Assembly: GCA_963792585.1 (NCBI GenBank)
Contig: CAWBWI010000002.1
Location: 192,001-256,000 of the forward strand
Length of the DNA stretch: 64,000 nt
From: Candidatus Eiseniibacteriota bacterium
GTDB lineage: Bacteria; Eisenbacteria; RBG-16-71-46; CAIMUX01; VGJL01
Direction of reading: 5' to 3'
The position numbers and the translations under genes are program-made. Below, piece by piece: positions 9,541-30,350 of this stretch. Position 1 is the first letter of the stretch, and each line of letters starts with the position of its first letter. The notes beneath the pieces are model-generated. The model saw only the letters and a program-made list of their open reading frames with translations. It ran no database searches and had not been told where the DNA came from.

Positions 9541-9710
9541 TTGCCATTGCAGGGAGCGGGCGGCCCCTCGGCGAGTTCCGTACAGGTAGATCCACGCGAT
9601 CCTCGTCTGGATGCCGAGCGAGGCGCTGGATAGAGGTGTTCGCCCTTGCGACCCGGTGCGGCGTTGATAGAATCGAGGCGCTGTGGCGGAGGAGGGGAGA
9701 TGAGGGTTCG

Positions 9711-11896
9711 ATGACGGAACAGGAGCGGTCCGACCTCCCGAATCCGGCGCATTCGTCCCCCTTCCGCATCGAGGACTGCCTCATCCTTCCCGCCCTGAAC
9801 CGCATCGAGTGCGGCCGGGAGACCCACCAGATCGAGCCCCGGGTCATGCAGGTCCTGGTCTGTCTCGCCTCCCGACCGAACGAAGTCCTTTCCCGGCAGA
9901 TGCTCTTCGACGCGGTCTGGACCGATTCCGTGGTCTGCGAAGAGGCGCTGACGAGGACGATCTCGGAGTTGCGACGGGTCTTTCGAGACGATACGAAGAC
10001 CCCCCGCGTCATCGAGACGATCCGGAAGGGGGGATACCGTCTCATCGCCCCGATCACGCCCGCATCCGCGCCGGAGCCGGGCAGGCAGGCGCTGCCGGCC
10101 CCGGACTCGGCGCCATCTCCGCCCCCGCCCCGGATCGAACCCTCGAAGCTGTCGATCCGCGGATGGCAGAGGACGGCCTGGCTACTCGGGATCGGCGGCA
10201 TGGCCGTCGTGACGGTGATCTTCATCTCCTCCTGGGGAGCGAAGCGCTTCACGCGGGCGAATCCATCGATTCCCGTTCTGACGGAACCGATCCCCCTCAC
10301 GAGCTTCCCCGGTCTGGAACTCTTCCCCGCCCTCTCGCCCGACGGTTCGATGGTCGCCTTCTCATGGGCGGGCGAGAGCTCGGGGGAGGGCAATCCCCTC
10401 GATATCTATGTCATGAAGACCAGGAACGGCTCGCCGGTCCGTCTGACCAATCTACCCGGGCCCGAGTGCTTCCCATCCTGGTCACCCGATGGCACGGAGA
10501 TTGTCTTCTCCAATGAAACGAAGGACGGATACGCGATCTGCACCATGCCGGTTCTCGGGGGAGAGGTCCGGCGGATGGCCACGGTCGAGTCCGAGATCGG
10601 CGGGCTGGATTGGTCGCCCGACGGTCAGACGATCGCCTATTCGGCCGCCGACACGTCGAGCGAGATCCCGCGGATCCGCCTTCTGACATTGGGGAGCCTG
10701 TCGCGGCGGGCTCTCACAACCCCGCTGCAACATTGCCGGGGGGACATCGAACCGGTCTTCTCCCCGGACGGGCGAAGTGTAGCCTTCGTCCGCATCAATC
10801 AACTTCAGGATCCGGACGCGTATGTTGTGCCGTTCGAGGGGGGCGAAGCGCGTGCACTCGACATCGGGGGCGGGCGGGTCTCCGGCGTTGCCTGGTGGTC
10901 GCAGCGGGAGCTGATCATCTCCGCGGCATCGAAGCTGGACTATGGCCTGTGGAAGGTCTCCGTCGATTCCGGCGAGCGATCGCGGCTCTCGATTCCAGGA
11001 GGGAGGATCCAGAGAGTATCCCTGGCGCGAACCAGCCGGCGTCTCGCGTACGAGAAGATCTCCTTCGCCCGCAACATATGGTGCGTCGACATTTCAAAGG
11101 CGGGGGAGTTCCATCGACGGCGGGAGCCCCTGATCGCATCGACGCAGCGGCAATCGGAACCGGTCCCTTCGCCCGACGGTCGATCGATAGCCTTTGTCTC
11201 GGACCGATCCGGATCGTCCGAGATCTGGATCGCCGACGCCTCCGGCGACCATCCGCGACGACTCACGGACCATCAGGCCACGCAGATGACCCGTCCCCGC
11301 TGGTCCCCGGACGGGACGCAGATCGCCTACTCATGCAATGCCGATGGGCCTTCCTCGATCTATGTAACGGAACTGCAATCACAGGTCGCCCGCAGGTTGG
11401 TCCCCGGCGGGCCGCAGATCCTCGCGGCGTGGTCGCGGCAGGGAGACGACCTCTACTACCAGGCCGATGCTCCCGGGGGTGGGAGGTATGGCGGGTCCAT
11501 CCCGATGGGACCGGCCGCAGGAAGGTCAGCGAGGCGGGTTACACGATCATCGATGAGGCTTCCGACGGTAGCGGCCTTCTGTGTGTCAAGTCGGGCGAGC
11601 CGGGGATCTGGCTCCTGCCGGTCGACGGCGGCCAGAAGTCGCTGGTGGTCCCGGGTGAATCGTGTCGAGACTGGCAGGAGACGATCGTCGCAGAGGGTGG
11701 GTTGTATTTCACGCGCCGCGGCAAGGAGACATCGACGCTGGGGTTCTACGATCTTGCCACCGGTCGGTCCGATTCGCTCGCCTCTCTGGAATGGTATGCC
11801 GCCTCGCTCGCGCTCTCCCCGGACCAATCGATGCTGCTCTACGATTGCATCGGAAAGATCGAAGCGGACCTGATGCTTTCCGAGGTCCGTGAATAG
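9711..11896 (+). CDS. CadC/ToxR-like winged-helix regulator + TM + extracytoplasmic TolB/PD40 propeller (one frameshift at about 11475-11479)
   Basis: IEPRVMQVLVCLA...LTRTISELRRVF.DD...IETIRKGGYRL (Trans_reg_C); TM helix; WSPDG repeats. Reading continues in another frame after the G5 run (YYQADAPGG / WEVWRVHPDG). Confidence 0.8.
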
Positions 11897-11926
11897 GGCG
11901 CGTCAGCAGGCGGATCTCGTGCTTCT

Positions 11927-12045
11927 TCAGGCGGGCCGTCGTCTCCACCGTCCCGGCGAGTCTCCGGTCCAGCGGCGGAATGCTCGGTTGAAGCTGCTCT
12001 GACCGCTGAATCCAAGCATGAACGCCACCTCCGCGATCGACACCC
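11927..12045 (-). pseudogene. 3' fragment of an AraC-family regulator (second HTH only)
   Basis: SIAEVAFMLGFSGQSSFNRAFRRWTGDSPGRWR is the AraC C-terminal signature; no upstream AraC sequence is present. Confidence 0.75.
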
Positions 12046-12329
12046 TCGGGGTGTACCGCCGCGGATGGTTCGCGGCCGGCGAGTTCGGTAAGGACAAGGC
12101 GATCGTCACGCACGTGACGCACAGCGACTGGTACCAGAAGAACTTCTATCCCGGCGCCAAGAACGGATGGTACCTCGATACGGGTGGAACCTTCCATTAC
12201 GGCCTGGCGGCCGGCCTCGCGCTGGGCAGGGCGGAGTTGGTCGGGCGCTTCGGCTGGGCTCGGACCGAGGACTTCAACGAACTGGTGCCGCCTTTGTACG
12301 GGAGCGCGGGGGTGGGGTTCGGGATGTGA
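12042..12329 (+). pseudogene. 3' fragment of a probable outer-membrane beta-barrel protein
   Basis: Amphipathic strands ending ...PLYGSAGVGFGM; no signal peptide or credible start; abuts the AraC fragment back-to-back. Confidence 0.5.
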
Positions 12330-12401: not shown

Positions 12402-13871
12402 CTACCCCGTGATCCCGGTCGCGAGACGGTCGCGAAGGGTCTCGGTGAAGACCATGAACCGCCAGACGTCCGCGAAGTTGGATGCAAGTCCGAGTGAGAC
12501 ACGAATCGTGTTGGGGACTTTGCCGGATGCATCCTGGATGAGACGCTGGCAGTCAAGCAAGGTGACCGGAATCTCCGGCTCGGAAAAGCATTCGGCCATC
12601 TCGTCCCGGCTGATGTCGTGAGCCACTTCGCCGTCGCCGGGATTGCAGAAGCAGCCCGTGCGTACGGAGATGTGCTCGAGCCCGGCGAGTTCCTCGACGC
12701 GTTGCACGTCGTAAACGACGCCGCCCGGATCCAGAAGGTAGAAGGCGATGGTGGCGCCGCGGCGCTCCATCGTCTCAGGGCCGAACAGACGCACCATCGG
12801 AGCGCCGTTGGAGTGACGCATCGCGGACATTTCGTCGAGAAGCCAAGCAGCAAGGGAGACGACCCGCGCGTGCACGGTGTCGAGACCGATATCGGTCAGG
12901 TGGCGCAGACCGATTGTGAGCGCGGGCAGTCCCAGGTAGTCGACGGTGCCGTCCTCGAATCCGGCGTGGCCGGGCGCTAGGTGGTGCCAGCCCGCGCCCT
13001 GCACGGACGCGATGGTGATGGTGCCACCGGAGAACCACGGACGCCGCAGCGAGGCGAGCGCCTCGCGTCGAGCCAGCAGCGCGCCGGCTCCGGTGGGATA
13101 ACCGAACATCTTGTAGAACGAGAGGGTGACAAAGTCGGGTTGCACTTCGGAGAGGTCGAGCCGGTTGGTGGGTACAAAGGCCGCCGAGTCCAGCAAGACA
13201 TGCCAGCCTTCCGACCGCGCCAGGGCGACCCACTCGAGCGGATGCTGCACGCCGCTGAAGTTCGACTGCGCGGGATAGGCGAAGAGCCGGGGGTGTTCCC
13301 GGGCCGCAGTCTGCAGGTGATGGCGTACCAGATGCTCGTCCAGGCGCAGATCGGGGTTGCGCACCGGTACGTAGATGACCTGCGCGCCGTTCCGCCGCGC
13401 GTACTCACGAACGCCGTTGACGGAGTTGTGATTGTCGTAGGAAAGCAGATAGGTTCCGCCGGGTTCGAACGGGAACGCCTCTCCGATGAGCTTCAGCGCC
13501 CCACTCGCGTTCGAGGTGAATACAACATCGTATTCATCCGTGGAGGCATGAAAGAAGTCGAGCACGCTCGCCCTCGCCTCCTCGACGAGCTCCGTTGCGG
13601 CCAGCGAGGTCGGATTGCGCGAGTGCGGATTGCCAAAGACCCCGGTCGCGAGGAGGTCATGGTGGGCGCGAATCTGCGACTCGCCATAGAGGCCGCCGCC
13701 GGTGTAGTCGAGATAAGTATGGCCCTGGGCGTCGAGCCGGGCGTAGTCACGAGCCCGGTAGGTGTCGATCCGGCTGGTCGTGCCATAGCCGGGGTGCGCG
13801 AGGGTGAAGGCCGCAAACGCCTCTGCGTAGCGCCCGGAATGGTAACGCGTGTCGGACGAGGTTGGGGACAC
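12402..13871 (-). CDS. Class-V PLP aminotransferase, molybdenum-cofactor-sulfurase (MOCOS/ABA3)-like cysteine desulfurase domain
   Basis: YLDYTGGGLY, DNHNSVNGVRE, AYPAQSNFSG, VLLDSAAF, SFYKMFGYPTG (PLP Lys), RTGCFCNPG (persulfide Cys); GTG start after GAGGAG; no MOSC domain. Confidence 0.85.
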   Translation of the reverse strand: MSPTSSDTRYHSGRYAEAFAAFTLAHPGYGTTSRIDTYRARDYARLDAQGHTYLDYTGGGLYGESQIRAHHDLLATGVFGNPHSRNPTSLAATELVEEARASVLDFFHASTDEYDVVFTSNASGALKLIGEAFPFEPGGTYLLSYDNHNSVNGVREYARRNGAQVIYVPVRNPDLRLDEHLVRHHLQTAAREHPRLFAYPAQSNFSGVQHPLEWVALARSEGWHVLLDSAAFVPTNRLDLSEVQPDFVTLSFYKMFGYPTGAGALLARREALASLRRPWFSGGTITIASVQGAGWHHLAPGHAGFEDGTVDYLGLPALTIGLRHLTDIGLDTVHARVVSLAAWLLDEMSAMRHSNGAPMVRLFGPETMERRGATIAFYLLDPGGVVYDVQRVEELAGLEHISVRTGCFCNPGDGEVAHDISRDEMAECFSEPEIPVTLLDCQRLIQDASGKVPNTIRVSLGLASNFADVWRFMVFTETLRDRLATGITG

Positions 13872-14039
13872 GACGACTCCTCGGTTGGACTTCCTGACAG
13901 GCTCATCTGTGAGTCGAGAATCGACAGCCGAACCGTTCGGTACGGGCCCGATCCCGAATGACGGTAACCCATGGTGATCGGGGCGAAAAGACGGACGTGG
14001 GGGCTTTGCCACGACGATAGGGCGAGTCGGCCAGGCAGA

Positions 14040-15392
14040 TCAGCCGCACCCTCCCTTTGCAACCGCCCTTCTCTCAACCTTGACCTTCCTCACGTAGTCG
14101 CGCCTCGGTGGGTTTCCGCCGGTGAACGTCGGATCGGCCGAACCCCCCGGACCCGCCGTGGACGCCATCGCGCAGTCGGGGACATACTCCCGGCGTGCGA
14201 CTTCGGGATGAGCCGAAGGGCTCAGCTCGCCGACGGCGACGAGGAATCGGTAGTGGAGCATCTCGTCAACCCCGATCCCGTCGACGGTACTGACCTGCTC
14301 GCTCCCTTCGCTTCCGTCGACACGCAGCGCGACGCAGGGGCCGACGGGATAGGCCTCCAGCCAGTGGTTGATCCCTCCCTCGATCACGTAGAGGTTCAGC
14401 ACGCCCTGCGCCTTCAATCTCTTCCACGCCTCGACGGCGTCCCTTTCCCCGTTGCTGACCAGAAACACGATCGTGTTGTCGGCGTCGTCGAGGAGATTGC
14501 GGACCAGATCTGCGGCCGTCGTGGAACCCATGTCGATCCGCTCCGAGCCGGAGAGGTGGAAGAGGTTGTAGTCAGCCTCGGCGCGCACCTCCAGGATCCT
14601 GACGAGCAAGGTGAGATCCCGGCGTAAGTCGACGACCTCGGCAGGGTCCACGAAGATCTCGCGGCCCGCGATCTGACGATCACCATCCTTTGAGATCCAA
14701 TTCCAGCGATCCGCGACGCTCGGCTGTCCCTTGAGGATCAGGCCGAAACACAGCGCCACGAGCGACCCTGCGGCGATCAGGATGGTCCGGCGGCCCGGCA
14801 TCGATCGGCGGCCTCCGAACTTCGCCTCGGCGAGCTCCGCGAGGTAGAACATTCCGAGTGCCATCGAAACGAGAAGCAGAACGGTCACACCCGTCGGCAG
14901 TCCAAGCCAGGCCGGGAGCGTGAAGACTCCCATGGAGCTCGAATGCCACCACCTGTCGAAGAGGTGGACCGTCTCGCCGAAAGCCTGGACGCCAAAGAGG
15001 CCGCCCACCACAAACATGATTCCGTCCAGCTTCAGCGTGCCGGCGGCGACCAGTGAAGTGCCCGGACAGAATCCGCCGACGATGAACCCGACCCCCATGA
15101 TCAGCCCGCCGACGATCCCCGGCACGAGGTACGTTGGGTTGACCCAAACCCGGGCCAGATCCAGAAGCTGGAAGGCGGAGGCCAGGTGGATCAGGACAGC
15201 CGCCGTGATAATCCCGGTGAACATCACCTTGAGAACGGTCAGATCGCGCAGGTAGAACTGCGCCGCGAGCTTCCGCGAGTCCCCGAATCCGGACGACTCC
15301 AGCACGACCCCGAACCCGATCCCGAGGAGGAAGAAGGTCAGAAAGTAAGCGATTCCGCCGGCATGCAAGGCGAGATTGAAGGGAGCCATCAT
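14040..15392 (-). CDS. YeeE/YedE sulfur-compound transporter fused to a rhodanese-like domain, ending in GGCG
   Basis: GIGFGVVLE.SGF, GGLIMGVGF.VGGFCPGTS; rhodanese-like EVRAEADYNLFHL.GS...LYVIEGGINHW; C-terminus KVKVERRAVAKGGCG. Confidence 0.85.
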   Translation of the reverse strand: MMAPFNLALHAGGIAYFLTFFLLGIGFGVVLESSGFGDSRKLAAQFYLRDLTVLKVMFTGIITAAVLIHLASAFQLLDLARVWVNPTYLVPGIVGGLIMGVGFIVGGFCPGTSLVAAGTLKLDGIMFVVGGLFGVQAFGETVHLFDRWWHSSSMGVFTLPAWLGLPTGVTVLLLVSMALGMFYLAELAEAKFGGRRSMPGRRTILIAAGSLVALCFGLILKGQPSVADRWNWISKDGDRQIAGREIFVDPAEVVDLRRDLTLLVRILEVRAEADYNLFHLSGSERIDMGSTTAADLVRNLLDDADNTIVFLVSNGERDAVEAWKRLKAQGVLNLYVIEGGINHWLEAYPVGPCVALRVDGSEGSEQVSTVDGIGVDEMLHYRFLVAVGELSPSAHPEVARREYVPDCAMASTAGPGGSADPTFTGGNPPRRDYVRKVKVERRAVAKGGCG

Positions 15393-15400
15393 GCCCTCCC

Positions 15401-15949
15401 CTAGGTCCAGAGTCGCCGGAGCGACCAGGCAAGCGCATACGCGGCGATGAAGATCGAGAACATGAACGCGAAGCTGCCCACGGAGAGCACGGCCCCGCCA
15501 CTCAGAGCCTGGCCGGATGTGCAGCCCCGGGCCATGCGGGCGCCGTAGGCCATGATGACCCCACCCAGGAATGCGGTGGCCCAACGCGCCGGAATCGAGA
15601 TACGCGGCCCACGCCGTGTCTCCAGCTTCACCCGGCGATTGAGCAGCCCGGAGAGCGTCCCACCCAGGATCGTCCCGAGCAGCATGAGGACCGACGGGTG
15701 GCTGAGCGCGTTCCGATGTCCACCACCCATCTCGGACATGTAGCCGACACGGTCTACATGGCCGGCGTCGAGCACATCGAGGACCGCAACCTGCACTCTG
15801 TTGATCGCTGCGGAGGCGCCAAGACCGTTGCCGGTGATGTAGAAGGAGAGAAACAGGACGACCCCGAGCAAGGCCCCGCCGAGATAGGGGTTGATGTACC
15901 CTCGGGGCGAGCGGGGCTTCCGCGTAGGTGCCGTGCTGATCTCAGGCAT
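15401..15949 (-). CDS. YeeE/YedE family membrane protein
   Basis: NPYLGGALLG, GLGAS, GARMARGCTSGQALSGG motif; several TM helices. Confidence 0.85.
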   Translation of the reverse strand: MPEISTAPTRKPRSPRGYINPYLGGALLGVVLFLSFYITGNGLGASAAINRVQVAVLDVLDAGHVDRVGYMSEMGGGHRNALSHPSVLMLLGTILGGTLSGLLNRRVKLETRRGPRISIPARWATAFLGGVIMAYGARMARGCTSGQALSGGAVLSVGSFAFMFSIFIAAYALAWSLRRLWT

Positions 15950-18260
15950 TGGATCCTCCCGTCGCCGCGTGGCGTTTCAGTTCGATTTCCTCGTATCCAT
16001 GGACCATGGAGCCGACGTTTGACAGCACGGTGCGCCCGGTCGTGGTGAGGTACACGTGGAAGCAGAAGAACGCCAGGAAGAGCCAGGCACAGAGGCTATG
16101 CAATGGCGCCACCAGGGTAAGCCCCCCCGTGGCCTGCGCCAGCTGCGGCCACCGCGATGCGCCCCAGATCAGGATGCCCGTCACCACCTGGATGGGGAAG
16201 AGCACGTTCAGGAGTGCAAGATAGGTGATCTGCTGCAGCGGGTTCAGTTTCCGTTCCGGCGTCTTCGGCGAAGGATGTGGCTGTCCGAGGAAGATCCCGC
16301 GCGCATAGTACTGCGCCTGCGCGGTGACGTTGTCGATCAGGTCCTTCCGTGGCGGCAGGAATTGCCTGATCGCACTCGTTGTGAGGTGGTAGAAGAGCGA
16401 GAGGAAGGCGTTCACCGTCAGAACGACCGCGAAGAAGTTGTGGACGGTGACCGCCTTCGGCAACGCGATGAGGTTCCAGGCGCCCGCAAAGTGAACCTGA
16501 AGCCCCGTTAGCATCAACGCGAGGATGCTCAGGCCCATGAGCCAGTGCCAGAGCCTCTCGTAAGCGGAGTACAGGTACACCCGACGGGTAGCGGCCTGCG
16601 CCGCTTCACCCTTCGCACGTCGCGAGAGGACCCGGAAGAGGGTATGAGCCATGATACCCAGGAGCGAGACGACGAAGATGGTGAAGCCAAGGCGATCGGC
16701 CCATCCGCGTCGGGAGTGGCCGAGGACGTACAGGCCGGTGGCGGGCCTGGGCACGACGGACGCGCCCTCGCGGCCGAATTCGATCCGAGCTTGGAGGCTT
16801 GGGTCGACCGACGGATCCCGAGTGGACGGGTCGGCGCCGACCGGAACGTACGACGCGAGCTCGAGCCCGGCGCTCAAGCGGGACTGGCTCCCGTGACAGC
16901 TCAGGCAGTCCCGCTGAACCTGCTCGCCCCCTTGCACCCCGTGCGTGATCGGATGAAACGAGACCTCCCGGAGGATCCTCGGATCGCCGACGCCGAGCTC
17001 GTGAAGTCGCGACCGTATCAGGTCCGTCTTGGCGACTGTGTCGAGGCGTAACTCCGCCGGGCTCAGTCGGCCGTCTTGGTTCCCGTCAAAGGCCACGAGG
17101 ACCTCAGCGTCGTAGCGATCGTCCTCGAGGTACGCCCTGACGATCAGGCTTGCCGCAAGCGCGGAGCCGCCGGGGCCGTCGGACCAGAACCAGGTGTCGA
17201 CGACGTTGAATGGAGCCAACTTGGTTCCCCCGCGGGGGTCGCTGTGGGGCAGGAGCATTGGGGAGTATCCCCGGGTGTATGCCGTACTGAGGGACCCGCT
17301 CTCCAGGAGTTCCATTCCGCGATACTGCGCGAGGGCACGCCGATCCATCGTGATCACGGTCGCGTCGATCGTCCCGGCCGCCGGGCCCATGGGGTGCGGG
17401 ACATGGCAGGCCTGGCACTCCAGCGTGTCGAAGTGCCGGCGCTTGTACGGAAGGAAGTCGTGAACCTTCAGCGGATCGTGACATGACCGGCAAGTGGCGG
17501 CCGCGAGTCGATGATTCGGCTCGTGCAGGTACTCCGAGATCGGGATCCGTCGCGGATCCTCGACGAGGAAGTCCAGCCTCGCGTGCTTCATCTCGGCCTT
17601 GGCGGGGTTGTTCGGAGAGAAGTGGCAATCGACGCAAGCAACCAGCCTCCGCGCGTGGACGTCCCAAGGGTAGGTTCGCCCCTCCTTGCCCTGCAGGTTC
17701 AAGTACGAGCGGCTGACGTCCTGCGAGGAGATGATCGCGCCCGTGTTCAAGGTGAGGTCGCAGGCCACCATCGAAGCGGAATCGGCCCTTGGACCGAATC
17801 CGGCAGGAATTGAAAGGGGATCGTCTCCTTCGTGGACGATGCCGTGGCACGAGGCGCAGTTTTCGTCGCGGGGCGCGGAGATTCGAATCGCCTCGCGACG
17901 AAGCTTTCCAGTCTCATCGTAGGCCCCCGGATCACGCGGGAATTCTCCCCCATGCAAATGGCACTCGATGCAGGTCACCTGCACGCGGTCGCTCCAGTGA
18001 TCGCTGTGGGCGTGAATGTAGTCGGCATCGTGACATGCCCCGCAGGTGGTTTCCGAAGAGGCCGGCCGGCCGGATGCCCCGACCGGCGCCCCTGTCCCGT
18101 CCAGAACGACGAAGGCGGGATGCATCGGGTTCGCTCCTGGCCCCTGCGGCGCGATCGACGTCGAGGCCTGGAAGAACGCCGGCGTCTGGGGCGCCGCGGA
18201 AACCAGTGTGCCGATCGTGCCCAGCAGAGCGAGCCCATATGCCACGGTAATTCGGGTCAT
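15942..18260 (-). CDS. 7-heme c-type cytochrome (OTR-like) fused to a Ni-hydrogenase/Fdn-type cytochrome b
   Basis: Signal peptide; CxxCH x7 (CGACH, CIECH, CASCH, CVDCH, CRSCH, CQACH, CLSCH); cytochrome b part ERLWHW, VHNFF, KLNPLQQITY, LHSL..WLFLAFFCFHVY; ATGA overlap with the upstream gene. Confidence 0.85.
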   Translation of the reverse strand: MTRITVAYGLALLGTIGTLVSAAPQTPAFFQASTSIAPQGPGANPMHPAFVVLDGTGAPVGASGRPASSETTCGACHDADYIHAHSDHWSDRVQVTCIECHLHGGEFPRDPGAYDETGKLRREAIRISAPRDENCASCHGIVHEGDDPLSIPAGFGPRADSASMVACDLTLNTGAIISSQDVSRSYLNLQGKEGRTYPWDVHARRLVACVDCHFSPNNPAKAEMKHARLDFLVEDPRRIPISEYLHEPNHRLAAATCRSCHDPLKVHDFLPYKRRHFDTLECQACHVPHPMGPAAGTIDATVITMDRRALAQYRGMELLESGSLSTAYTRGYSPMLLPHSDPRGGTKLAPFNVVDTWFWSDGPGGSALAASLIVRAYLEDDRYDAEVLVAFDGNQDGRLSPAELRLDTVAKTDLIRSRLHELGVGDPRILREVSFHPITHGVQGGEQVQRDCLSCHGSQSRLSAGLELASYVPVGADPSTRDPSVDPSLQARIEFGREGASVVPRPATGLYVLGHSRRGWADRLGFTIFVVSLLGIMAHTLFRVLSRRAKGEAAQAATRRVYLYSAYERLWHWLMGLSILALMLTGLQVHFAGAWNLIALPKAVTVHNFFAVVLTVNAFLSLFYHLTTSAIRQFLPPRKDLIDNVTAQAQYYARGIFLGQPHPSPKTPERKLNPLQQITYLALLNVLFPIQVVTGILIWGASRWPQLAQATGGLTLVAPLHSLCAWLFLAFFCFHVYLTTTGRTVLSNVGSMVHGYEEIELKRHAATGGSNA

Positions 18261-19684
18261 GGTCGGCCTCCGGTGCGGATCGGATCTCCGCCGTACCCGA
18301 GCGCGGCCCAGTCCATCCGCGAGCGCTCTCCATGACAGTCGTTGCATTCGAGGGCCCTCTCCTTGGGTGAAACCATGTGCGAGAGGGGCCAGTACATCGC
18401 CGTCTTTGCGAATCCATAGGAGCCGCTGTACTCGATGTCCGAGGCCTGAGCGCCGAGTCTCATCGACTGGTCCCAATTGAACGTCTTCCAATATCCGCCT
18501 TCGCCTCCCGTGACCGGGGGCATGAGAATCTTGTACCTGCGGTCGAATGGTTGAAGCGCGCGATGCACCTTGAATGGCCAGATCTTCGCGGCGGGATCAT
18601 GGATATCACCCCGTGGTCTGTTGATGTCCGTGACCTGGGTCGAGTCGATCGCATCTCCGAGGAGGTAGCGATCGACGCTTTGGTTGAACCACATGTACTC
18701 CGGCACGATGTCTTGACCGTATACGAACTCGCCTTTGATCTTGAGATAGTGGTGGGCATCCTCTTCGCGATCGGGATCGCCCGCCTTGCTCCAGTCCCAG
18801 AAGGTCTTCGTTGGGAGCTTTCGCGCATAGGTGGGGATGTGGCAGGTCTGACAGGCCACGGAGCCGAGGTGAGCGTTGATCCGTTCATCGGCGTGAGGGG
18901 GCTTCCGGTGGCAATCCGTGCAGCCCACGCCGTTCGCATCCTCGACGCTTACCGAGAACGCCCGGCCCGAGACGTTGTGCTTGGTGGTGCGGTGGCAATC
19001 GATGCAGAGGAATCCATGCGCCCCCATGTGGACGTCGTCCTCGGCGGAGGGATTCTCCAGGCTGCTGTCTAGATCCCCGTGCTTCACCCCCTGGCCGCCG
19101 CCGCCGTAGCTGTGGCAGACGGAGCAGTTCTCCCGCCTCGGGAATCCCACCGATCGGGCGGCCGCCAGCAGATCGGATCCCGACGTCGGTATTCCCGAGT
19201 TGCCCTTGACGTAGGCTCCGGTTCGCTCGTGGCAGACGAGGCAGTCGATGTTCTCGGCGTTGCTGAAGTCGAACGTAGGGTCCGACCAACCGTAACCGGC
19301 ATGGCACTTCGTGCACGCGGCGTAGTTGCCGGTGACGGAGATGCAGAAGTTGTTGATGAGGTTCTTCTTCCCGATTCGTATCGGCCGGTCGTGACCCGGG
19401 ATCGTGACCTCGCCTCCCAGCCACTGCCAGTGCGCTGTCTTCATGAAATCGGTCGCCTCTTCGGGGTGACACTTCAGGCATGCCCGCGTGACCTCCTGGG
19501 GTGAGGCTAACGGACCGGTGAAGTACGGCGTGTGATCGAGGTGGCTGCGCTCCGCCCCTGTGAAGGTGACCTCGGCCCGGTCGCTTTCGTGATGGGTATG
19601 GCTCCTTGCGAGATAGATCCCGAGGGTTGTCAGGGTAAGGAGGACCGCGACCACCCAGGCCTGGAGAAATCGCGCGCGCCTCAT
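18257..19684 (-). CDS. otr: Octaheme tetrathionate-reductase (OTR)-family c-type cytochrome
   Basis: 8 CxxCH; family motifs HWQW, GKKNLINNFC, CTKCHAGYGW, GGGG.GVKHGDLD, DVHM, KIWPFKVH, WPLSHMVSPKE.AL.C. Confidence 0.88.
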   Translation of the reverse strand: MRRARFLQAWVVAVLLTLTTLGIYLARSHTHHESDRAEVTFTGAERSHLDHTPYFTGPLASPQEVTRACLKCHPEEATDFMKTAHWQWLGGEVTIPGHDRPIRIGKKNLINNFCISVTGNYAACTKCHAGYGWSDPTFDFSNAENIDCLVCHERTGAYVKGNSGIPTSGSDLLAAARSVGFPRRENCSVCHSYGGGGQGVKHGDLDSSLENPSAEDDVHMGAHGFLCIDCHRTTKHNVSGRAFSVSVEDANGVGCTDCHRKPPHADERINAHLGSVACQTCHIPTYARKLPTKTFWDWSKAGDPDREEDAHHYLKIKGEFVYGQDIVPEYMWFNQSVDRYLLGDAIDSTQVTDINRPRGDIHDPAAKIWPFKVHRALQPFDRRYKILMPPVTGGEGGYWKTFNWDQSMRLGAQASDIEYSGSYGFAKTAMYWPLSHMVSPKERALECNDCHGERSRMDWAALGYGGDPIRTGGRP

Positions 19685-20118
19685 CGAGAGTTCCCGATGG
19701 TGCATTGGGCCGCGACGGAGGAGAGGGTCGTATTCTTCAGATACCGAAGCACGTCTCTCTCGAAGCCCATGATCATGCGGCCGAAGACGCACTTCTTGTC
19801 ATGTCCTCCGACACAAGTGTGACTCTGGAAGAGGCAGGGCTTGAGGACGACGGGACCTTCGATCAGCGTGTAGATCTCGAGCAGCCGGATCTGCCCGGCG
19901 CTTCTTCCGAGTGTGAACCCGCCCGTGGCGCCCCGATGGGGGGTCAAGAGACCTCCTTGGGCAAGTCGCCTGCAGACCTTGATCATGTGCGCCTCGGATG
20001 CCCGGCAGTCTCTCGCCAGACTCTTCGCACTCAACACATCTCCCCCACCCGCCGCCACGCGGGCCATCGCGTGGAGGGCGAGCGCGGCCGCTTCCGAGAA
20101 TCTGAGCAGACTCGCCAA
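19681..20118 (-). CDS. Rrf2-family transcriptional regulator with three candidate Fe-S cysteines
   Basis: FSEAAALALHAM, RGATGGFTL, I.LLEIY..IEG, C-x5-C-x7-C; TTG start after AGGAGG. Confidence 0.88.
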   Translation of the reverse strand: MASLLRFSEAAALALHAMARVAAGGGDVLSAKSLARDCRASEAHMIKVCRRLAQGGLLTPHRGATGGFTLGRSAGQIRLLEIYTLIEGPVVLKPCLFQSHTCVGGHDKKCVFGRMIMGFERDVLRYLKNTTLSSVAAQCTIGNSR

Positions 20119-20172
20119 CGGAACCTCCTGAGGTTGGGCCGGGCCGGCGCGCCGAAAGAGCGCGGCTTCGTC

Positions 20173-20213
20173 ATTCAGGTAAATAAGTACCGCTTTACCT
20201 GTATCGGCGTCAA
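20173..20213 (-). promoter_or_regulatory. Palindromic operator CAGGTAAA-N10-TTTACCTG with adjacent -35 TTGACG, putative Rrf2 site
   Basis: Perfect 8-bp inverted repeat at 20176-20201 in an AT-rich patch; minus-strand TTGACG at 20208-20213. Confidence 0.7.
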
Positions 20214-20345: not shown

Positions 20346-21554
20346 TCAATCCTGTGCGAGTGCCTGCTCGAGATCCTCGAGGAGATCGTCAGGGTCTTCG
20401 ATTCCGACCGAGTAGCGGACGAGACCGTCGGTGATTCCCGCCAGCAGCCGTTCCTGGGGGGGCAGTCCTGCATGGGTCATCGAGGCAGGGTGCTCGATCA
20501 AGGTCTCCACTCCGCCCAGGGACACGGCCAGCACCGCCAGCCGGACCCTGTTCATGAGGCGCTTTCCCGCCTCCAGGCCGCCCTTGAGCTCGAAGCTGAT
20601 CATCGACCCGGGGCCCTGCATTTGACGACGCGCCAGCTCGTACTGCGGATGGGAGGGCAGACCGGCGTAGCGAACCCAGGAGACCTCCTCGCGTGATTCG
20701 ATCCAGCGCGCGATCTTGCTCGCGCTCTCCTGCGCCCGGTCGATGCGAATGGCGAGTGTCTTGAGACCTCTGTGGACCAGGAAGGCCTGATGGGGGTCCA
20801 TGTTGCAGCCGGTGATGACCATGACATCCCGCAGCCTTCGATAGATCTCCTTGTCCCGGGCGACGAGGATTCCTCCGACGACGTCCGCGTGGCCGTTGAT
20901 GAACTTGGTGACCGAGTGCAGGACGACATCGGCATTCATCGTCAGGGGCTTCTGAAGATGGGGGGACGCGAAGGTGCTGTCGACGACCAGAAGCGCGCCG
21001 GCGGCATGTGCAATCTCGGCGACGGCGCGGATATCCGTGATCTGCATCATCGGGTTGGACGGCGTCTCGACAAAGACCATCCGCGTGTTCGTCCGGAGGG
21101 CAAGGCGCAGAGCCTCGATGTCGGAGGTGTCGACGAACGATGACGACACCCCGAATCTCCCGAGATGCCGCTCCATCAGCGTACGCGAGGGTCCGTAGAC
21201 CGAAGCGGTGCTGACCACGTGCGCATCGCGCTCGAGGAGCGCAAGGCAGACGGTGGAGACGGCACCCATTCCGGAACTGGTAGCGACACCGCCGACGCCC
21301 TCCTCCAGCTCCGCAACGCAATCCTCGAGTGCGCGGATGGTGGGATTGCCGATCCGGGTGTAGATGTACCCATCCGCCTTGCCGGCGAAGCGATCCGCAC
21401 CGACCTGGGTGTTCTCAAAGGCGAAGGTCGATGTTTGGTAGATGGGTGTGACGACGCTTCCGCACGGGTCCTTCGGTGCACCCGCATGGACGAGTTTCGT
21501 ATGAAATCCGGTGACCCTGCTCTTCGTTTGGTTGGTATCCGCGGCCTGACGCAA
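20346..21554 (-). CDS. Trans-sulfuration PLP lyase (methionine gamma-lyase / cystathionine gamma-lyase family)
   Basis: PIYQTSTF, YIYTRIGNPT, SSGMGA, ETPSNP, HSVTKFINGHADV, AVSLGGVETLIEHPASMTH, RYSVGIED; TTG start after AAGGAGG. Confidence 0.88.
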   Translation of the reverse strand: MRQAADTNQTKSRVTGFHTKLVHAGAPKDPCGSVVTPIYQTSTFAFENTQVGADRFAGKADGYIYTRIGNPTIRALEDCVAELEEGVGGVATSSGMGAVSTVCLALLERDAHVVSTASVYGPSRTLMERHLGRFGVSSSFVDTSDIEALRLALRTNTRMVFVETPSNPMMQITDIRAVAEIAHAAGALLVVDSTFASPHLQKPLTMNADVVLHSVTKFINGHADVVGGILVARDKEIYRRLRDVMVITGCNMDPHQAFLVHRGLKTLAIRIDRAQESASKIARWIESREEVSWVRYAGLPSHPQYELARRQMQGPGSMISFELKGGLEAGKRLMNRVRLAVLAVSLGGVETLIEHPASMTHAGLPPQERLLAGITDGLVRYSVGIEDPDDLLEDLEQALAQD

Positions 21555-21621
21555 GCGCCCCTCCTTTGATATTGGACTCACGAATGCAGCATGGATTCCA
21601 TCGCCGGCTCCGACCACGGCC

Positions 21622-22008
21622 TCACTGCCGGTCGTGGGTGTGATGCTGACCTTGGTGATGGCCACAAGCCGTTTCCGGGGTCACCGGGCGGAGCGTTCCC
21701 GCTCTGAGTGCCGCCATGGTCTCCACGATGGTCGGCTGCTCCGAGAGAAACACCTGGATCCCGGCGCTCACCAGTTTGCTCAGGGCGCCCATGCCGATAC
21801 CCCCGACTACCATGCCGTCGAATTGCTCGCCTTGAAGAGAAGCGAGCGGGGTGCACATGCCGTGCGCGTGATGTTGGTTGTTGTTCCGAATCGCCCGAAA
21901 GTCCCCCGAGTCCGCGTCGACGATCATGAAGAGCGGCGCGGATCCGAAGTGCGCGCAGACCGGGCTATTGAGCCCTTGGTCTTCATTGACGGGAATGCAG
22001 AGTTTCAT
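21622..22008 (-). CDS. NifB/NifX-family iron-molybdenum cluster-binding protein
   Basis: MKLCIPV, HFGSAPLFMIVD, GGIGMGA...L..AGI; His/Cys-rich segments; ATGA coupling to the DUF134 gene. Confidence 0.85.
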   Translation of the reverse strand: MKLCIPVNEDQGLNSPVCAHFGSAPLFMIVDADSGDFRAIRNNNQHHAHGMCTPLASLQGEQFDGMVVGGIGMGALSKLVSAGIQVFLSEQPTIVETMAALRAGTLRPVTPETACGHHQGQHHTHDRQ

Positions 22009-22388
22009 GACTGGTTCTCCTCCGGTGGTTTCTTGCCGCGACTGCCCGCGTCGGAACGCTTGGTATCCCGATCGTGCAGCCGACAGCATCGGTGGGCTCC
22101 CATGTGGATCGGACCACCCTCGATCCGGAGAGCCTTTCCGTGGACGAGGGCGTCAGCCACTTTCCGGTGCGCCGAATCGGCGATCCGGCTGAAAGTGGGC
22201 CTGGAAATCTTCATCTTCTCGGCCGCCTGCTCCTGATAGAGCCCATCGAGATCCGCGAGCCTCAGAGCCTCGAATTCGTCGAGGGTCATCACGATCTCCT
22301 CGAGCTCCGTAACGGGAATGCCAATCGGCTTGAAGATCGAAGCGGCGGGCTTTCCGGCGATGCTCCGGTTGCAGAAGGGTCTGGCCAC
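22005..22388 (-). CDS. DUF134-family DNA-binding protein
   Basis: FKPIGIP, LDEFEALRLADLDGLYQEQAAEKMKISRPTF, KVADALV.GKALRIEGG; GTG start after GGAGG. Confidence 0.88.
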   Translation of the reverse strand: MARPFCNRSIAGKPAASIFKPIGIPVTELEEIVMTLDEFEALRLADLDGLYQEQAAEKMKISRPTFSRIADSAHRKVADALVHGKALRIEGGPIHMGAHRCCRLHDRDTKRSDAGSRGKKPPEENQS

Positions 22389-22507
22389 TCCCGCACCTCC
22401 CGATTCCATTGGGTACCCACGTGAATTGCATGACAGGACCAGGACAGCGGCTCCGATCGACTCCCGAAGCGGGAGAAAGACGTGGACAGATTCGCGTCCT
22501 CAGATCT

Positions 22508-22537
22508 ATATTACGGACATAAGTTCATAACAGTCAA
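22508..22537 (-). promoter_or_regulatory. Sigma70-type promoter (TTGACT-N18-TAATAT) overlapped by an imperfect palindrome
   Basis: -35 at 22532-22537, -10 at 22508-22513; TTACGGACATAAGTTCATAA (22511-22530) is 14/20 self-complementary. Confidence 0.65.
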
Positions 22538-22589
22538 CCTCGAAAGTGCCGCCCTTGGCGCGACCGAGGCTGCACATCGGCAGGAGCTC

Positions 22590-23030
22590 ATGGAACCCGA
22601 GCGACGTAGCGCATCCTTGATCACCGGCTACGACCACGACGAGTGCCTGGTCTGCGGGTACAGGAACCCATGGTCGTGGGGCATGCGGTACGAGCAGGAG
22701 GAGAGCGCCGCAGTCTGCGGACGCTTCCAGGGGAACGCTCGGCTGCAGGGATACCAAGGCATTCTTCATGGGGGCGTGCTCGCGGCACTCCTCGATTCCG
22801 CGATGGCGCATTGCCTGTTTCATCGTGGTGTGCAGGGGGTGACCGGCGATCTCCACGTGCGGTTCGTGCAGCCTGTCTCCTGCGAGGCAACACTCGATGT
22901 CCGAGCGCATCTCGTATCCGCGGCGGCACCGCTGTACTACCTGAAGGCCGAACTCCTCGACGACGGACGGATCATGGCCTGGGCCGAAGCCACCTTCATG
23001 GAGCGCAGCCGCGCCAACGGGAATGCCTGA
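22590..23030 (+). CDS. PaaI-family hotdog thioesterase
   Basis: CLVCG..NP, QGY.GILHGGVLAALLDSAM, TGDLHVRFVQPV; AGGAG RBS. Confidence 0.85.
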   Translation: MEPERRSASLITGYDHDECLVCGYRNPWSWGMRYEQEESAAVCGRFQGNARLQGYQGILHGGVLAALLDSAMAHCLFHRGVQGVTGDLHVRFVQPVSCEATLDVRAHLVSAAAPLYYLKAELLDDGRIMAWAEATFMERSRANGNA

Positions 23031-23640
23031 GTCCGGACCTGTCGCGGAGGGGAAGAGGAACTCCTTCCTTCGCCGAACCCAGAAGTACCTGGACCACGGT
23101 TACGATCGCCATGCGGCCGCCGCGTACGTCGCGCGGCTGACCGGCCGGGCCACAAGTCCCGCCCTGGATATCGGAACCGGAAAGGGACTTCTCGCTATCG
23201 CCCTCGCCCGGAACGGGCTCCATGTCGTGTCCGGCGACGTGAGTACGACAGACTCCGATCTTGCGGCGCTGCTGGCCGAGGAGGCCGGGGTCACAACCCG
23301 AATCAAGTTCTCTATTCTGGATGCTTCGAGTCTTCCCTTTCGTGACGGTTGCTTCGGATGTATCGCGATGATGGATGTGCTGCATCATCTCGAGGAAGGG
23401 GAGCCGGTGTTCACGGAAGTCAGGCGGACACTCCGACGAGGCGGTACCCTCGTCGTCGCCGACTTCACCCGGGAGGGATTCGACCTCATCGCCCGTGTGC
23501 ACCGCGAGGACGGTGGAGAACATCCTGTCGGCTCGGTGACCCTGGACTGGGCATCCAACCGGCTTCAAGAAGGGGGCCTCATCCGAAGGTCCGATACGAC
23601 GGCTCACCTGCAGAGGGTCATCGTGTACTTCAATCCATGA
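23023..23640 (+). CDS. Class I SAM-dependent methyltransferase
   Basis: LDIGTGKG, DASSLPFRDGCF, VLHHL, LRRGGTLVVADF; overlaps the thioesterase stop. Confidence 0.85.
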   Translation: MPESGPVAEGKRNSFLRRTQKYLDHGYDRHAAAAYVARLTGRATSPALDIGTGKGLLAIALARNGLHVVSGDVSTTDSDLAALLAEEAGVTTRIKFSILDASSLPFRDGCFGCIAMMDVLHHLEEGEPVFTEVRRTLRRGGTLVVADFTREGFDLIARVHREDGGEHPVGSVTLDWASNRLQEGGLIRRSDTTAHLQRVIVYFNP

Positions 23641-23675
23641 ATGCACCAGGCGACGCCATCCCTGGGGGGAGATCG

Positions 23676-25373
23676 ATGACGGAGATCAAGAGGATCTTGA
23701 TTGTTGGCGGCGTCGCGGGAGGCGCATCCGCCGCGACCCGTGCTCGCCGGCTGTCCGAAGCCGCCGAGATCGTGCTGTTCGAGCGGGGGCCCTATGTGTC
23801 GTTCGCCAACTGCGGGCTACCCTATCACGTCGGCGGCGCGATCCAGGATCGCAAGCGGCTCCTCGTCCAGACCCCCGAAGGTCTCTATGCCCGGTACGAC
23901 ATCGACGTGCGGGTCAACACGGAAGTGGTGTCCATCGACCGCCGGGCGCAGGAGGTCGTGGTCAGGGATCTGCGAGATGGGCGGGAGTCCCGTGAGCCGT
24001 ACGATGCTTTGGTGCTGAGCCCGGGCGCGGAGCCGATCCGCCCGCAGATTCCGGGGACCGACGACCCTTGCGTGTTCACCTTCCGCAACATGCGCGACAT
24101 GGATGCAATCGTCCATGCCCTGGACGCGGCTACGCAGCGCAAGGCCCTCATCGTCGGCGCGGGCTACATCGGGTTGGAGATGGCCGAAGCCATGCGACAC
24201 CGGGGCATGGCGGTGGTGCTCGTGGAGAAGCTGGAACACGTGATGGGGGTGGCGGACCCGGAGATGGTGGCGCCTCTGCACGCGGAGTTGTTGCGTCAGG
24301 GAGTTGAATTGCGATTGGGCGCGTCCGTCGTCGCCTTCGAACGTCAAGGCGATCATCTGGAGGCCGTGTTGTCGGGTGACCAACGCATATCCTGCGGATT
24401 GGCCTTGCTCGCCGTGGGCGTCCGGCCGGAAACGACGCTGGCGAAGGATGCGGGTCTGGAGCTAGGGGTCACCGGCGGCATCTTGGTGAATGCGCGCATG
24501 AAGACCAGTGATTCGTGCATCTGGGCGGTGGGTGATGCAATCGAGGTTCGCGACCTGGTCGCGGATCAGCCCGCGCTCATTCCGCTTGCCGGGCCGGCCA
24601 ACCGCCAGGGACGCATCGCCGCCGATAACATCCTGGGACGGGACAGCCGTTACAGGGCAACGCAGGGCACGGCGATCTGCAAGGTCTTCGACCTTGCCTT
24701 TGCCATGACGGGCTTGACGGAGTCGAGCCTGCTCCGACTCGATCGGGGCTATAGCCGGATCTACGTACATCCCGCGGACCACGCGGCCTACTACCCCGGC
24801 GCCCATCCCATCTCGATGAAGTTGCTCTTCGATCCTGCGGATGGGCGGATCTTGGGGGCGCAGGCCGTCGGGGTCTCGGGCGTCGACAAACGGATCGACG
24901 TTCTTGCCGTTGCGATTCGTGCGGAGATGACGGTCTTCGATCTCGAGGATCTCGAACTCTGCTACGCGCCCCCATTCGGCAGCGCCAAGGACGCAGTGAA
25001 CATGGCCGGCTTTGTCGCTTCCAATGTCTTGCGCGCGGACGCGGCCTTGTGGGAACCCGAGGAGCTTGATGGCTTGGGGCCGGACCGGTTGCTGCTGGAT
25101 GTACGAACCTTCCAAGAGCACGCCGACGGGACGATCCCGGGAGCCGTATGCGCGCCATTGGATGAGCTGAGGGACCGACTGGACGACCTTCCGCGCGAGA
25201 AGGAGTTGCTGGTCTTCTGCCAGGTCGGGTTGAGAGGATACGTAGCCTCGCGGCTTCTCACGCAACGCGGATTCAGGGTTCGTAACCTCTCGGGAGGGTA
25301 CAAACGTTATCAGATGTGGAAAGGGGAGATCGCTATCCCGCTCTCCGCGGAAGTCGAGATCCGGGAGGAATGA
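23676..25373 (+). CDS. CoA-disulfide reductase-rhodanese fusion (CoADR-RHD / Npsr-like persulfide reductase)
   Basis: GGVAGGASAA, SFANCGLPY redox Cys, GAGYIGLE, LAGPANRQG, LCYAPPFGSAKD; rhodanese LDVRT...FCQVGLRG...NLSGGY. Confidence 0.9.
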   Translation: MTEIKRILIVGGVAGGASAATRARRLSEAAEIVLFERGPYVSFANCGLPYHVGGAIQDRKRLLVQTPEGLYARYDIDVRVNTEVVSIDRRAQEVVVRDLRDGRESREPYDALVLSPGAEPIRPQIPGTDDPCVFTFRNMRDMDAIVHALDAATQRKALIVGAGYIGLEMAEAMRHRGMAVVLVEKLEHVMGVADPEMVAPLHAELLRQGVELRLGASVVAFERQGDHLEAVLSGDQRISCGLALLAVGVRPETTLAKDAGLELGVTGGILVNARMKTSDSCIWAVGDAIEVRDLVADQPALIPLAGPANRQGRIAADNILGRDSRYRATQGTAICKVFDLAFAMTGLTESSLLRLDRGYSRIYVHPADHAAYYPGAHPISMKLLFDPADGRILGAQAVGVSGVDKRIDVLAVAIRAEMTVFDLEDLELCYAPPFGSAKDAVNMAGFVASNVLRADAALWEPEELDGLGPDRLLLDVRTFQEHADGTIPGAVCAPLDELRDRLDDLPREKELLVFCQVGLRGYVASRLLTQRGFRVRNLSGGYKRYQMWKGEIAIPLSAEVEIREE

Positions 25374-27180: not shown

Positions 27181-27636
27181 CTAGCGGCTCCGGTCTCGAG
27201 ATCCGTTGCGATTGAAACGACCGATACCCGACCGGCGCCCGCTGACTTCCTTCGATTCGGTGTTTACGGAAGAGTTGGATCGACCGCGACGGCCAGGCGG
27301 CTCGCGTGTGATGGCTCCATGCGGGCGTATGAGCCGTCCGAGCGAATCGGGGAGTCGATAGGTCCGGCGGGCATTCACAGCCGGCCGCGTAGGATGGGCT
27401 TGATCCAGCCGGAAAGGAAGGCGGCGACTTGTCGTGTAAACCATCCAAGAAGCCACTTCGTGCCTGACTGGCGGTGACCTGCCGATGGGCCAGCCCTGGG
27501 GGGCGCCCCCGCACAGCCATCTGGCGCCGGACCCCCGTCCCGTGGTTTCATCTGCGGTTGCTCGGCCCGGCACGCGCCGGGCCCGACGATGGCAAGCGGC
27601 TCGCAAGATTCCACTGCAGAAAGGAGTCTCACCGAC

Positions 27637-30213: not shown

Positions 30214-30350
30214 GAGAAGGCCCTCGTGAAGGCGTAGAAGAGGAGAATCAGGAGCGCCAGGTTAAGCAGGACGACCGCGTAGAGGACGTTCCAGCTCCGG
30301 CCGAAGGGCGGCGGGTCCTCGTCCGCCGGTTGGCGCTGCCGCTCCCTCAT
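30210..30350 (-). CDS. Small single-TM protein (46 aa), probable SSS accessory subunit
   Basis: MRERQRQPADEDPPPFGRSWNVLYAVVLLNLALLILLFYAFTRAFS; ATGA/GTGA overlaps with both neighbours. Confidence 0.75.
   Translation of the reverse strand: MRERQRQPADEDPPPFGRSWNVLYAVVLLNLALLILLFYAFTRAFS

Follow-up and report, generated by a model that had tools for sequence, protein, structure and literature searches.

The window analysed here is a stretch of 64,000 nucleotides from a Candidatus Eiseniibacteriota bacterium (assembly GCA_963792585.1, contig CAWBWI010000002.1, positions 192,001 to 256,000 of the forward strand), and its element of interest is an operon built around otr, the gene for an octaheme cytochrome c of the OTR family. 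Four genes form the conserved unit: otr, the gene for a heptaheme/cytochrome b fusion (mhcB), and two genes for a split YeeE, the second of which adds a rhodanese domain. Judged from sequence and gene context, these core genes probably represent a molybdenum-free equivalent of polysulfide/thiosulfate reductase, in which OTR would cleave the S-S bond of sulfur held at the terminal cysteine of a flexible arm, and the substrate of OTR is likely sulfur carried on this arm rather than nitrite. The module is real, conserved and apparently undescribed in print. The native function of OTR has been described as cryptic, and genome papers assign the enzyme by turns to tetrathionate, nitrite or iron reduction.

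All six genes of the locus (rrf2, otr, mhcB, yeeE, yeeE-rhodanese and a gene for a class-V pyridoxal phosphate (PLP) enzyme) lie on the minus strand between 12402 and 20118, with overlaps of 4, 4 and 8 bp and an 8-bp gap between yeeE and yeeE-rhodanese. This layout, including a palindrome ahead of rrf2, had been described in a first-pass annotation made from the letters of the window, and was recovered at the same positions; the accompanying family assignments (Rrf2, OTR, multiheme/cytochrome b, two PF04143 halves, rhodanese and class-V PLP) were upheld by family scans. The core comprises the following features.

18257..19684, minus strand: OTR-family octaheme cytochrome c, 475 amino acids, with eight CxxCH motifs, an N-terminal membrane anchor or signal, and Lys106, Cys114 and Lys201.
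15942..18260, minus strand: mhcB, a heptaheme OTR paralogue joined to a PhsC/FdnI-like cytochrome b, without the Lys/Cys catalytic segment.
15401..15949, minus strand: C-terminal half of YeeE (PmpA-like), 182 amino acids, PF04143 positions 174-309, with Cys143.
14040..15392, minus strand: N-terminal half of YeeE (PmpB-like) with rhodanese and arm, 450 amino acids, PF04143 positions 10-156 and PF00581.
14040..14090, minus strand: C-terminal Gly-Gly-Cys-Gly arm with Cys449, in which Gly447, Gly448 and Cys449 are invariant.

A scan of species genomes with the OTR of the window, which favours close relatives, yielded 51 OTR loci. The YeeE pair or its first gene stood beside otr in 29 of them (28 downstream and in line, 1 divergent), and this linkage, whose survey had been proposed as a check on the first-pass annotation, proved conserved across Myxococcota, Eisenbacteria, Spirochaetota, Thermodesulfobacteriota, Bacteroidota and Ignavibacteriota. 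Among the 26 loci with an OTR of at least 55% identity, 23 carried the YeeE cassette, across four phyla, the 3 without it being loci that stop within 1.2 kb of otr. An open reading frame (ORF) with a Gly-Gly-Cys-type tail was present in 26/51 OTR loci, compared with 0.044 per 20 kb in the source genome. No nitrogen-cycle family was detected among the 44 recurrent or 79 single neighbours of the OTR loci, about half of the single neighbours having no Pfam match at 1e-12 and some being likely spurious frames. A search for plasmid carriage returned 4 partial matches, none covering more than 37% of the query.

Within the phylum, 151 genomes were searched with a YeeE-rhodanese profile and TIGR04315, and the cassette was detected in 25 and OTR in 12. 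It was placed directly behind otr-mhcB in 8/25 genomes and directly behind psrA-psrB in 17/25, never behind both, with a psrC match as well in 16 of the 17 psr-type genomes. No OTR was found at an E value of 1e-60 in these 17 genomes; the 4 OTR genomes without a cassette match comprised two cut by contig ends and two with an OTR of another clade. The source genome, which is 84% complete, gave no PsrA match. Twenty swap regions were fetched (17 without and 3 with OTR), loci G000, G006, G017 and G022 were taken from the OTR scan, and G100 was located by coordinates alone. The Psr-type catalytic subunit has a twin-arginine leader and matched PDB 2VPW/2VPZ with an E value of 3e-222 (next-best family, 3e-61). 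The Psr-linked rhodaneses, fused or separate, were without a catalytic cysteine and ended in GGC, GGCS or EGC in 13/17 cases, the remainder being cut by contig ends (3) or not found (1). A gene for a FadL-type outer-membrane channel is added in several psr-cassette loci and some otr loci, and the order psr-yeeE-yeeE-arm recurs in L047:1097-8509 (Bacteroidales) and L092:10266-16072. In L172-L188, psrABC was seen with a split YeeE pair, a membrane-anchored dead rhodanese ending in GGC or EGC and often a FadL-type gene. A full-text search, which covered few subscription papers and no supplements, returned no paper describing an otr-YeeE-arm or psr-YeeE-arm operon, and no description of the psrABC-YeeE-arm form was found in the literature.

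The sulfur rather than nitrogen context argued for in the first-pass annotation is favoured by these data, the exchange of psrABC and otr in one slot being stronger evidence than was then available. Given the slot shared with psrABC, the SoxYZ pair behind otr in two gammaproteobacteria, the selenocysteine at the active-site position in eight relatives and a search of the neighbours that found no nitrogen-cycle genes, OTR and its partner likely constitute a molybdenum-free replacement of polysulfide/thiosulfate reductase. The otr operon resembles PsrABC/PhsABC (the 2VPZ family) in its operon slot in relatives, a predicted quinol-linked periplasmic enzyme, a rhodanese-fold partner and a PhsC-like cytochrome b. 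Psr is accompanied by Sud, a periplasmic sulfur transferase. The otr operon differs from PsrABC/PhsABC and Sud in having c-type hemes only, no molybdopterin or Fe-S subunit having been detected in it by Pfam-family and NCBIfam scans, and a rhodanese with a terminal instead of an active-site cysteine. It is not a member of the PsrABC/PhsABC group, and we propose that it works like one; the molybdenum-free system with a probable quinol link that was postulated earlier is supported.

The OTR of the window scored 548.7 bits with TIGR04315 (curated cut-off 375) and was collinear with PDB 1SP3 over residues 51-471 (E 2e-144). The hallmarks of the family (eight CxxCH motifs, a lysine ligand of heme 2 and a catalytic-site cysteine, as given in 10.1101/2023.04.20.537704) are all present, Lys106, Cys114 and Lys201 are invariant in 30/30 aligned sequences, and the nearest OTR found, at 83% identity, is from Candidatus Eisenbacteria. 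By sequence, the protein is a plain member of the OTR family, sharing with the 1SP3 protein the eight heme motifs, the heme-2 lysine, the conserved cysteine and the collinear region. It differs from known OTR in its membrane anchor or signal, its own heptaheme/cytochrome b partner, its YeeE-arm cassette and a putative protein-bound substrate. An in-frame TGA occupies the Cys114 codon in 8/51 loci (L026, L028-L031, L033, L034 and L049), a 7-bp hairpin follows 16 bases past this TGA in the 8 genes and is lost in two Cys-coded relatives, and selA was present in 5/5 genomes tested, one of the five being Cys-coded. Since eight relatives encode selenocysteine at this position, residue 114 behaves, on the alignment, like a catalytic thiol; the selenocysteine loci are without the YeeE cassette and therefore support thiol chemistry at Cys114, not the arm. 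These OTRs were seen in Desulfobacterales, with extra N-terminal hemes and behind HmcB/HmcC-like genes.

Selenite reductases fall near the Psr/Phs clade, and the same arm chemistry could in principle serve selenium or tellurium oxyanions. L096 encodes an ExtM-like cytochrome and L013 a UshA-like (seleno)protein domain, both below cut-off; these matches and the occurrence of selenoprotein forms of both YeeE and OTR (PMC13188914, in which a selenoprotein OTR is already listed) would fit such a function. No recurring selenium genes were found beside the module, and a catalyst may contain selenocysteine without acting on selenium; this alternative is very unlikely.

Electrons are predicted to reach OTR from quinol through mhcB. 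Seven CxxCH motifs were present in 19/19 mhcB sequences, the Lys/Cys catalytic segment was absent, and a profile match to OTR of 98.6% marks the protein as homologous to OTR. The structure model of mhcB was comparable to OTR (1SP3; Z 6.9, rmsd 4.5, 183 aligned) and to FdnI (1KQF_C; Z 13.9, rmsd 4.9, 194 aligned), with a weak region at residues 200-261; the match to the PhsC model reached 121 bits (E 4.6e-35), under the cut-off of 204. His572, His607, His721 and His735 in the cytochrome b part are invariant and suitably placed. The heme register is ambiguous: hhalign pairs hemes 1-6 with OTR hemes 2-7, and the surroundings of the first heme also resemble OTR heme 1, as in MmcA. MmcA of Methanosarcina is a heptaheme OTR relative described as being without the catalytic heme, and shares with mhcB the seven hemes, the relationship to OTR, the absence of the catalytic lysine and a weak TIGR04314 match, whereas mhcB is fused to a cytochrome b and paired with an intact OTR. 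An anchor of the PhsC type, with two hemes, can draw on the membrane potential to drive electrons from quinol to acceptors of low potential, and such an anchor suits polysulfide or thiosulfate better than tetrathionate, which has a potential of +198 mV.

The YeeE pair corresponds to TsuA/YeeE (6LEO) and PmpA/PmpB in that its two halves contain equivalents of TsuA Cys91 (Cys109) and Cys293 (Cys143, kept wherever the alignment covers it). The TsuA model gave 37 bits against a cut-off of 400, and the C-terminal half aligned weakly with 6LEO 242-327 (E 0.03). Unlike TsuA, the pair is not a single nine-helix chain and has two instead of three cysteines, the Cys22 equivalent being absent as in PmpAB; unlike both TsuA and PmpAB, it has two extra helices, a fused rhodanese-arm and no TsuB/YeeD gene in the module. 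In the yeeE-rhodanese protein, Cys109 and the two additional helices are followed by a rhodanese fold that lacks the catalytic cysteine and then by a flexible, basic arm. For its alignment, 10/32 homologues were omitted (four near-duplicates, all tailed, two cut, three frameshifted and one split). Cys109 and Cys449 were the only invariant cysteines in 23/23 aligned proteins, and the active-site loop of the rhodanese was without cysteine in all 23. The rhodanese fold is confident in the model (Z about 10.5, rmsd 2.1, 100 aligned), residues 421-450 are without secondary structure, and the tail is lysine-rich. In fold searches with this model TsuA was not listed, the lists being filled by matches to the rhodanese domain. 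Of the aligned proteins, which are kin and not independent, 15 have both Cys353 and Cys407 and 8 have neither, a pattern expected of a structural disulfide.

The N-terminus of TsuA lies outside the membrane (PMC7449682), and a TsuA-like N-terminus followed by six helices would leave the rhodanese outside as well. Lys plus Arg counts fit this N-out topology (loop 1, 2.9; loop 2, 0.7; loop 3, neutral at 1.0; loop 4, 1.4; loop 5, 5.0). The arm, whose Gly-Gly-Cys-Gly tail had not been part of the first-pass description, is thus predicted from its sequence to be periplasmic and to act as a sulfur carrier, and the rhodanese domain is likely an external scaffold, not a cytoplasmic sulfurtransferase. 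The cytoplasmic sulfane-sulfur handling formerly attributed to the operon does not belong to its core, given a rhodanese without catalytic cysteine that is predicted to lie outside the membrane. A predicted complex of OTR 45-475 with rhodanese-arm 225-450 gave scores of 0.00 and 0.01 and no usable interface.

The arm is comparable to SoxYZ in its C-terminal Gly-Gly-Cys, a motif described for SoxY (PMC11237559), on a flexible arm and in the presence of a YeeE-family channel, as SoxT, in the same unit. It differs in its membrane-tethered rhodanese scaffold in place of the SoxY fold, a lysine-rich tail instead of VTIGGC and the lack of a SoxZ partner; no PF13501 (SoxY) match was found in the yeeE-rhodanese protein or in the source genome. 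Two gammaproteobacterial loci (L042, L044) contain an OTR-cytochrome b fusion with SoxY- and SoxZ-family genes behind it; the SoxY ends in GGCG, and no YeeE match was found within either locus. Rhodanese, OTR-cytochrome b fusion, SoxY-like and SoxZ genes form one run at L042:3908-6939 and L044:8582-12870, and soxY downstream of otr has been reported in such symbionts (PMC11237559). The SoxY-like tail and the SoxYZ genes behind otr in sulfur-oxidising symbionts would agree with OTR working in the opposite direction, like SoxAX, loading sulfide or thiosulfate oxidatively on the arm and passing electrons to menaquinone while sulfur moves inward through YeeE, as proposed for SoxT. The import of sulfur for oxidation by the YeeE-type SoxT1A (PMC11582611) and the FdnI-like anchor, which suits quinone reduction, point in the same direction; the other occupant of the slot is, against this, of the Psr type, normally a reductase, and no DsrA, like no SoxY, was found in the source genome, at 84% completeness, to finish the oxidation. 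An oxidative role is for these reasons unlikely.

The carriers in L042 and L044 also bear on a reading nearest to that of the first-pass annotation, in which free tetrathionate or polysulfide is the periplasmic substrate that OTR reduces, the arm works for the channel alone, and the product thiosulfate is imported through YeeE and assimilated. Activity with tetrathionate in vitro, induction by tetrathionate (otr transcripts were up 36-fold in one sediment study, p 0.049; PMC8528874), thiosulfate import by TsuA (PMC7449682) and nearby genes for a desulfurase, a lyase and a CoA-disulfide reductase are in keeping with it. A GGCG carrier stands behind otr without YeeE in these two loci, however, so that the arm goes with the enzyme and not just with the channel; moreover, the module has no YeeD/TusA gene and the desulfurase occurs in 1/51 loci, leaving this reading unlikely.

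In the reading that we prefer, reduction of arm-bound sulfur, the cytochrome b of mhcB would draw electrons from quinol and pass them through the seven hemes to OTR. The arm would pick up sulfane sulfur or thiosulfate in the periplasm and swing from the heme-2 site of OTR (Lys106, Cys114) to the external opening of the split YeeE channel (first Cys143, next Cys109) and back, with OTR splitting a sulfur-sulfur bond in the sulfur held on the cysteine tip of the membrane-tethered arm and tetrathionate acting as a small-molecule mimic of this bond. The net reaction would be reduction to sulfide, serving as an electron sink or in respiration, and the channel would most likely carry part of the sulfur inward. 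In this lineage, Rrf2 likely represses the operon from a palindrome over the promoter, and a desulfurase-like enzyme may be appended as an optional cytoplasmic partner. More tentatively, a sulfur-loaded protein arm and no free anion may be the natural substrate of OTR throughout this widespread operon, the heme-Lys/Cys site having replaced the molybdenum site of Psr and the split YeeE with its dead-rhodanese arm being a general plug-in carrier for two unrelated catalysts.

Several points weigh against this reading, the whole case for which is comparative. The YeeE pair was missing from 22/51 OTR loci, 3 of them cut short and 19 in other contexts (11 of these Hmc-like), so that the sulfur reading is not extendable to the whole OTR family. 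The selenocysteine OTRs belong to a clade that has no cassette. In a quick tree the heptaheme form makes up a single clade, and the genomes are kin; the swap may therefore reflect very few events. PsrA scored best on the PhsA model yet below its cut-off (511 vs 694), and the specificity of Psr versus Phs is described as unreadable from sequence (PMC13047784). The membrane region of the yeeE-rhodanese model is of low confidence (pLDDT 40-70), and no TsuB/TusA partner (TusA-family or YeeD gene) was found within the module. Caldithrix, which has Otr and Psr, showed no respiratory growth on sulfur, thiosulfate or tetrathionate (PMC5317091), though sulfur and thiosulfate were reduced during its fermentation, which would fit an electron-sink role. 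Finally, OTR reduces nitrite and hydroxylamine in vitro (cited in 10.1101/2023.04.20.537704), and no NrfA was found in the source genome, at 84% completeness, so that OTR could double as a nitrite reductase.

Together with the three-cysteine Rrf2, these last observations would allow OTR to be a nitrite or hydroxylamine reductase under a nitric oxide (NO)-sensing Rrf2, with the YeeE genes as passengers. The cassette is nevertheless retained in 23/26 close loci of four phyla, its slot is common to psrABC, nitrogen genes were not found among the neighbours, and the Rrf2 protein scored 30 bits with the NsrR model (cut-off 182), which rules out an NsrR identity; we regard this explanation as very unlikely. 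Should reduction of arm-bound sulfur be correct, the module would give uncultured anaerobes a way of reducing sulfur that needs no molybdenum and has not been recognised before, and Psr would gain an undescribed tethered carrier. Many genomes without Psr, Phs or Ttr may then still reduce polysulfide or thiosulfate without molybdenum, which would alter the sulfur-cycling readout of metagenomes. The slot swap with psrABC makes the function of OTR directly testable, and the cassette would, on the same condition, mark which OTRs to count as sulfur enzymes.

The operon is headed by a regulator gene and its control region.

19681..20118, minus strand: Rrf2-family regulator, 145 amino acids, PF02082; TIGR00738 at 74.9 bits (cut-off 73.3).
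20176..20201, no strand assigned: palindromic operator, 8-10-8, over the promoter spacer and -10.
20185..20213, minus strand: likely sigma-70 promoter read from the sequence, with a -35 hexamer at 20213-20208, a 17-bp spacer and a weak -10 at 20190-20185.

The palindrome had no second match anywhere in the window when up to 3 mismatches were allowed (chance expectation 0.01), and a genome-wide search for a wider Rrf2 regulon returned two other sites only, at 3 mismatches. Upstream of rrf2 in relatives, it was identical in L003, near-identical in L005, L013 and L078 and degenerate in L077 and L024. In 54 loci that lack rrf2, the region ahead of otr gave no match at up to 3 mismatches. The -35 and spacing of the promoter, which was not among the matches of a consensus promoter scan, are kept in L003, L005, L013 and L078. 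The palindrome is, on this pattern, a credible and likely Rrf2 autorepression site. Rrf2 itself met the generic family model, with subfamily scores far under the cut-offs for IscR (33/208 bits) and CymR (32/195 bits) as for NsrR. Its residues His16, Cys49, Cys95, Cys102 and Cys110 are invariant in 7/7 aligned sequences, and in the best solved matches, 6Y45/6HSD, His16, Cys95 and Cys110 align with positions His12, Cys90 and Cys110 of 6HSD. 6Y45/6HSD is probably the redox sensor RsrR, in which His12, Cys90 and Cys110 would be the [2Fe-2S] ligands. The protein is likely an Fe-S redox sensor, as suggested by its conserved residues. Rrf2 control, as originally claimed, stands for this lineage, in which gene and operator are real, but does not apply to the module at large: Rrf2 heads 5/51 OTR loci, its place being taken by MarR in 8 loci, by ArsR in 2 among relatives, and by other genes elsewhere.

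Beyond the core, the sulfur gene cluster includes the following features.

12402..13871, minus strand: class-V PLP enzyme, 489 amino acids, desulfurase-like; PF00266 only, below all NCBIfam cut-offs.
20346..22409, minus strand: DUF134 protein, NifB/NifX-like protein and methionine gamma-lyase-like enzyme; upstream, loosely associated.
22482..25373, plus strand: hotdog thioesterase, methyltransferase and CoA-disulfide reductase-rhodanese fusion; divergent, outside the conserved module.

The class-V PLP gene most likely starts at GTG 13871, in agreement with a ribosome site and with the start in L013. A gap of 168 bp separates this start from the yeeE-rhodanese stop, so that co-transcription with the operon is a possibility only; a terminator-like hairpin before the gene (14013-13996) was not significant (11 found vs 6.0 expected; z 0.45). 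Lys254, His148 and Cys409 were conserved in 80/80 homologues and Cys407 in 77/80, and the best solved matches were of the SufS type. The desulfurase adjoins otr in 1/51 OTR loci, a YeeE pair lies within 8 kb in 3/80 desulfurase loci (45/80 had at least 1.5 kb upstream), and G006 and G017 carry the module and the desulfurase on separate contigs, which rules it out as a core part and does not support it as a general feature of the operon. L107 repeats the gene order of the window with a distant OTR. The enzyme is a recurrent but optional accessory neighbour. Its designation as MOCOS-like holds for the PLP lysine and the catalytic-type cysteine, which with a conserved RTGCFCN cysteine motif it presumably shares with the MOCOS/ABA3 N-terminal domain and SufS-type enzymes. 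It fails for the MOSC domain, which is absent from the protein (three MOSC genes lie elsewhere in the genome), and for a Moco client, no xanthine-dehydrogenase-family protein (PF02738) having been found in the source genome, at 84% completeness.

One or more of the DUF134, NifB/NifX-like and gamma-lyase genes recur near the module in L002-L005, L013 and L027 and near the desulfurase in L092 and L096. In L092:4292-10141 and L096:3303-10099, genes for DUF134, NifB/X-like, CGGC-domain, gamma-lyase, two class-V PLP enzymes and a methyltransferase converge on the YeeE cassette, resembling the flanks of the window. The right end of the cluster is marked by a 467-amino-acid ORF (25560-26963), which we take to be IS1380-type transposase-like. 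At the other end, a 3' fragment of an outer-membrane beta-barrel-like gene without a clear start (11899-12329, plus strand) converges on the desulfurase, preceded by a winged-helix and PD40 beta-propeller gene (9636-11896) with an apparent frameshift near 11500. Apparent frameshifts also affect several genes at 27500-32900, possibly through long-read errors, and an ORF at 36349-37917 combines, by eye, a pyridoxamine-oxidase-like N-terminus, a GAF-like middle and a winged-helix-like end. Elsewhere, the source genome (G000) contains large multiheme cytochrome clusters with up to 30 CxxCH per frame (C2:337138-343880, C6:583247-588752, C6:879840-889293 and C3:860013-861878) and, at C4:299662-299931, a rhodanese match with one in-frame TGA, a possible selenoprotein.

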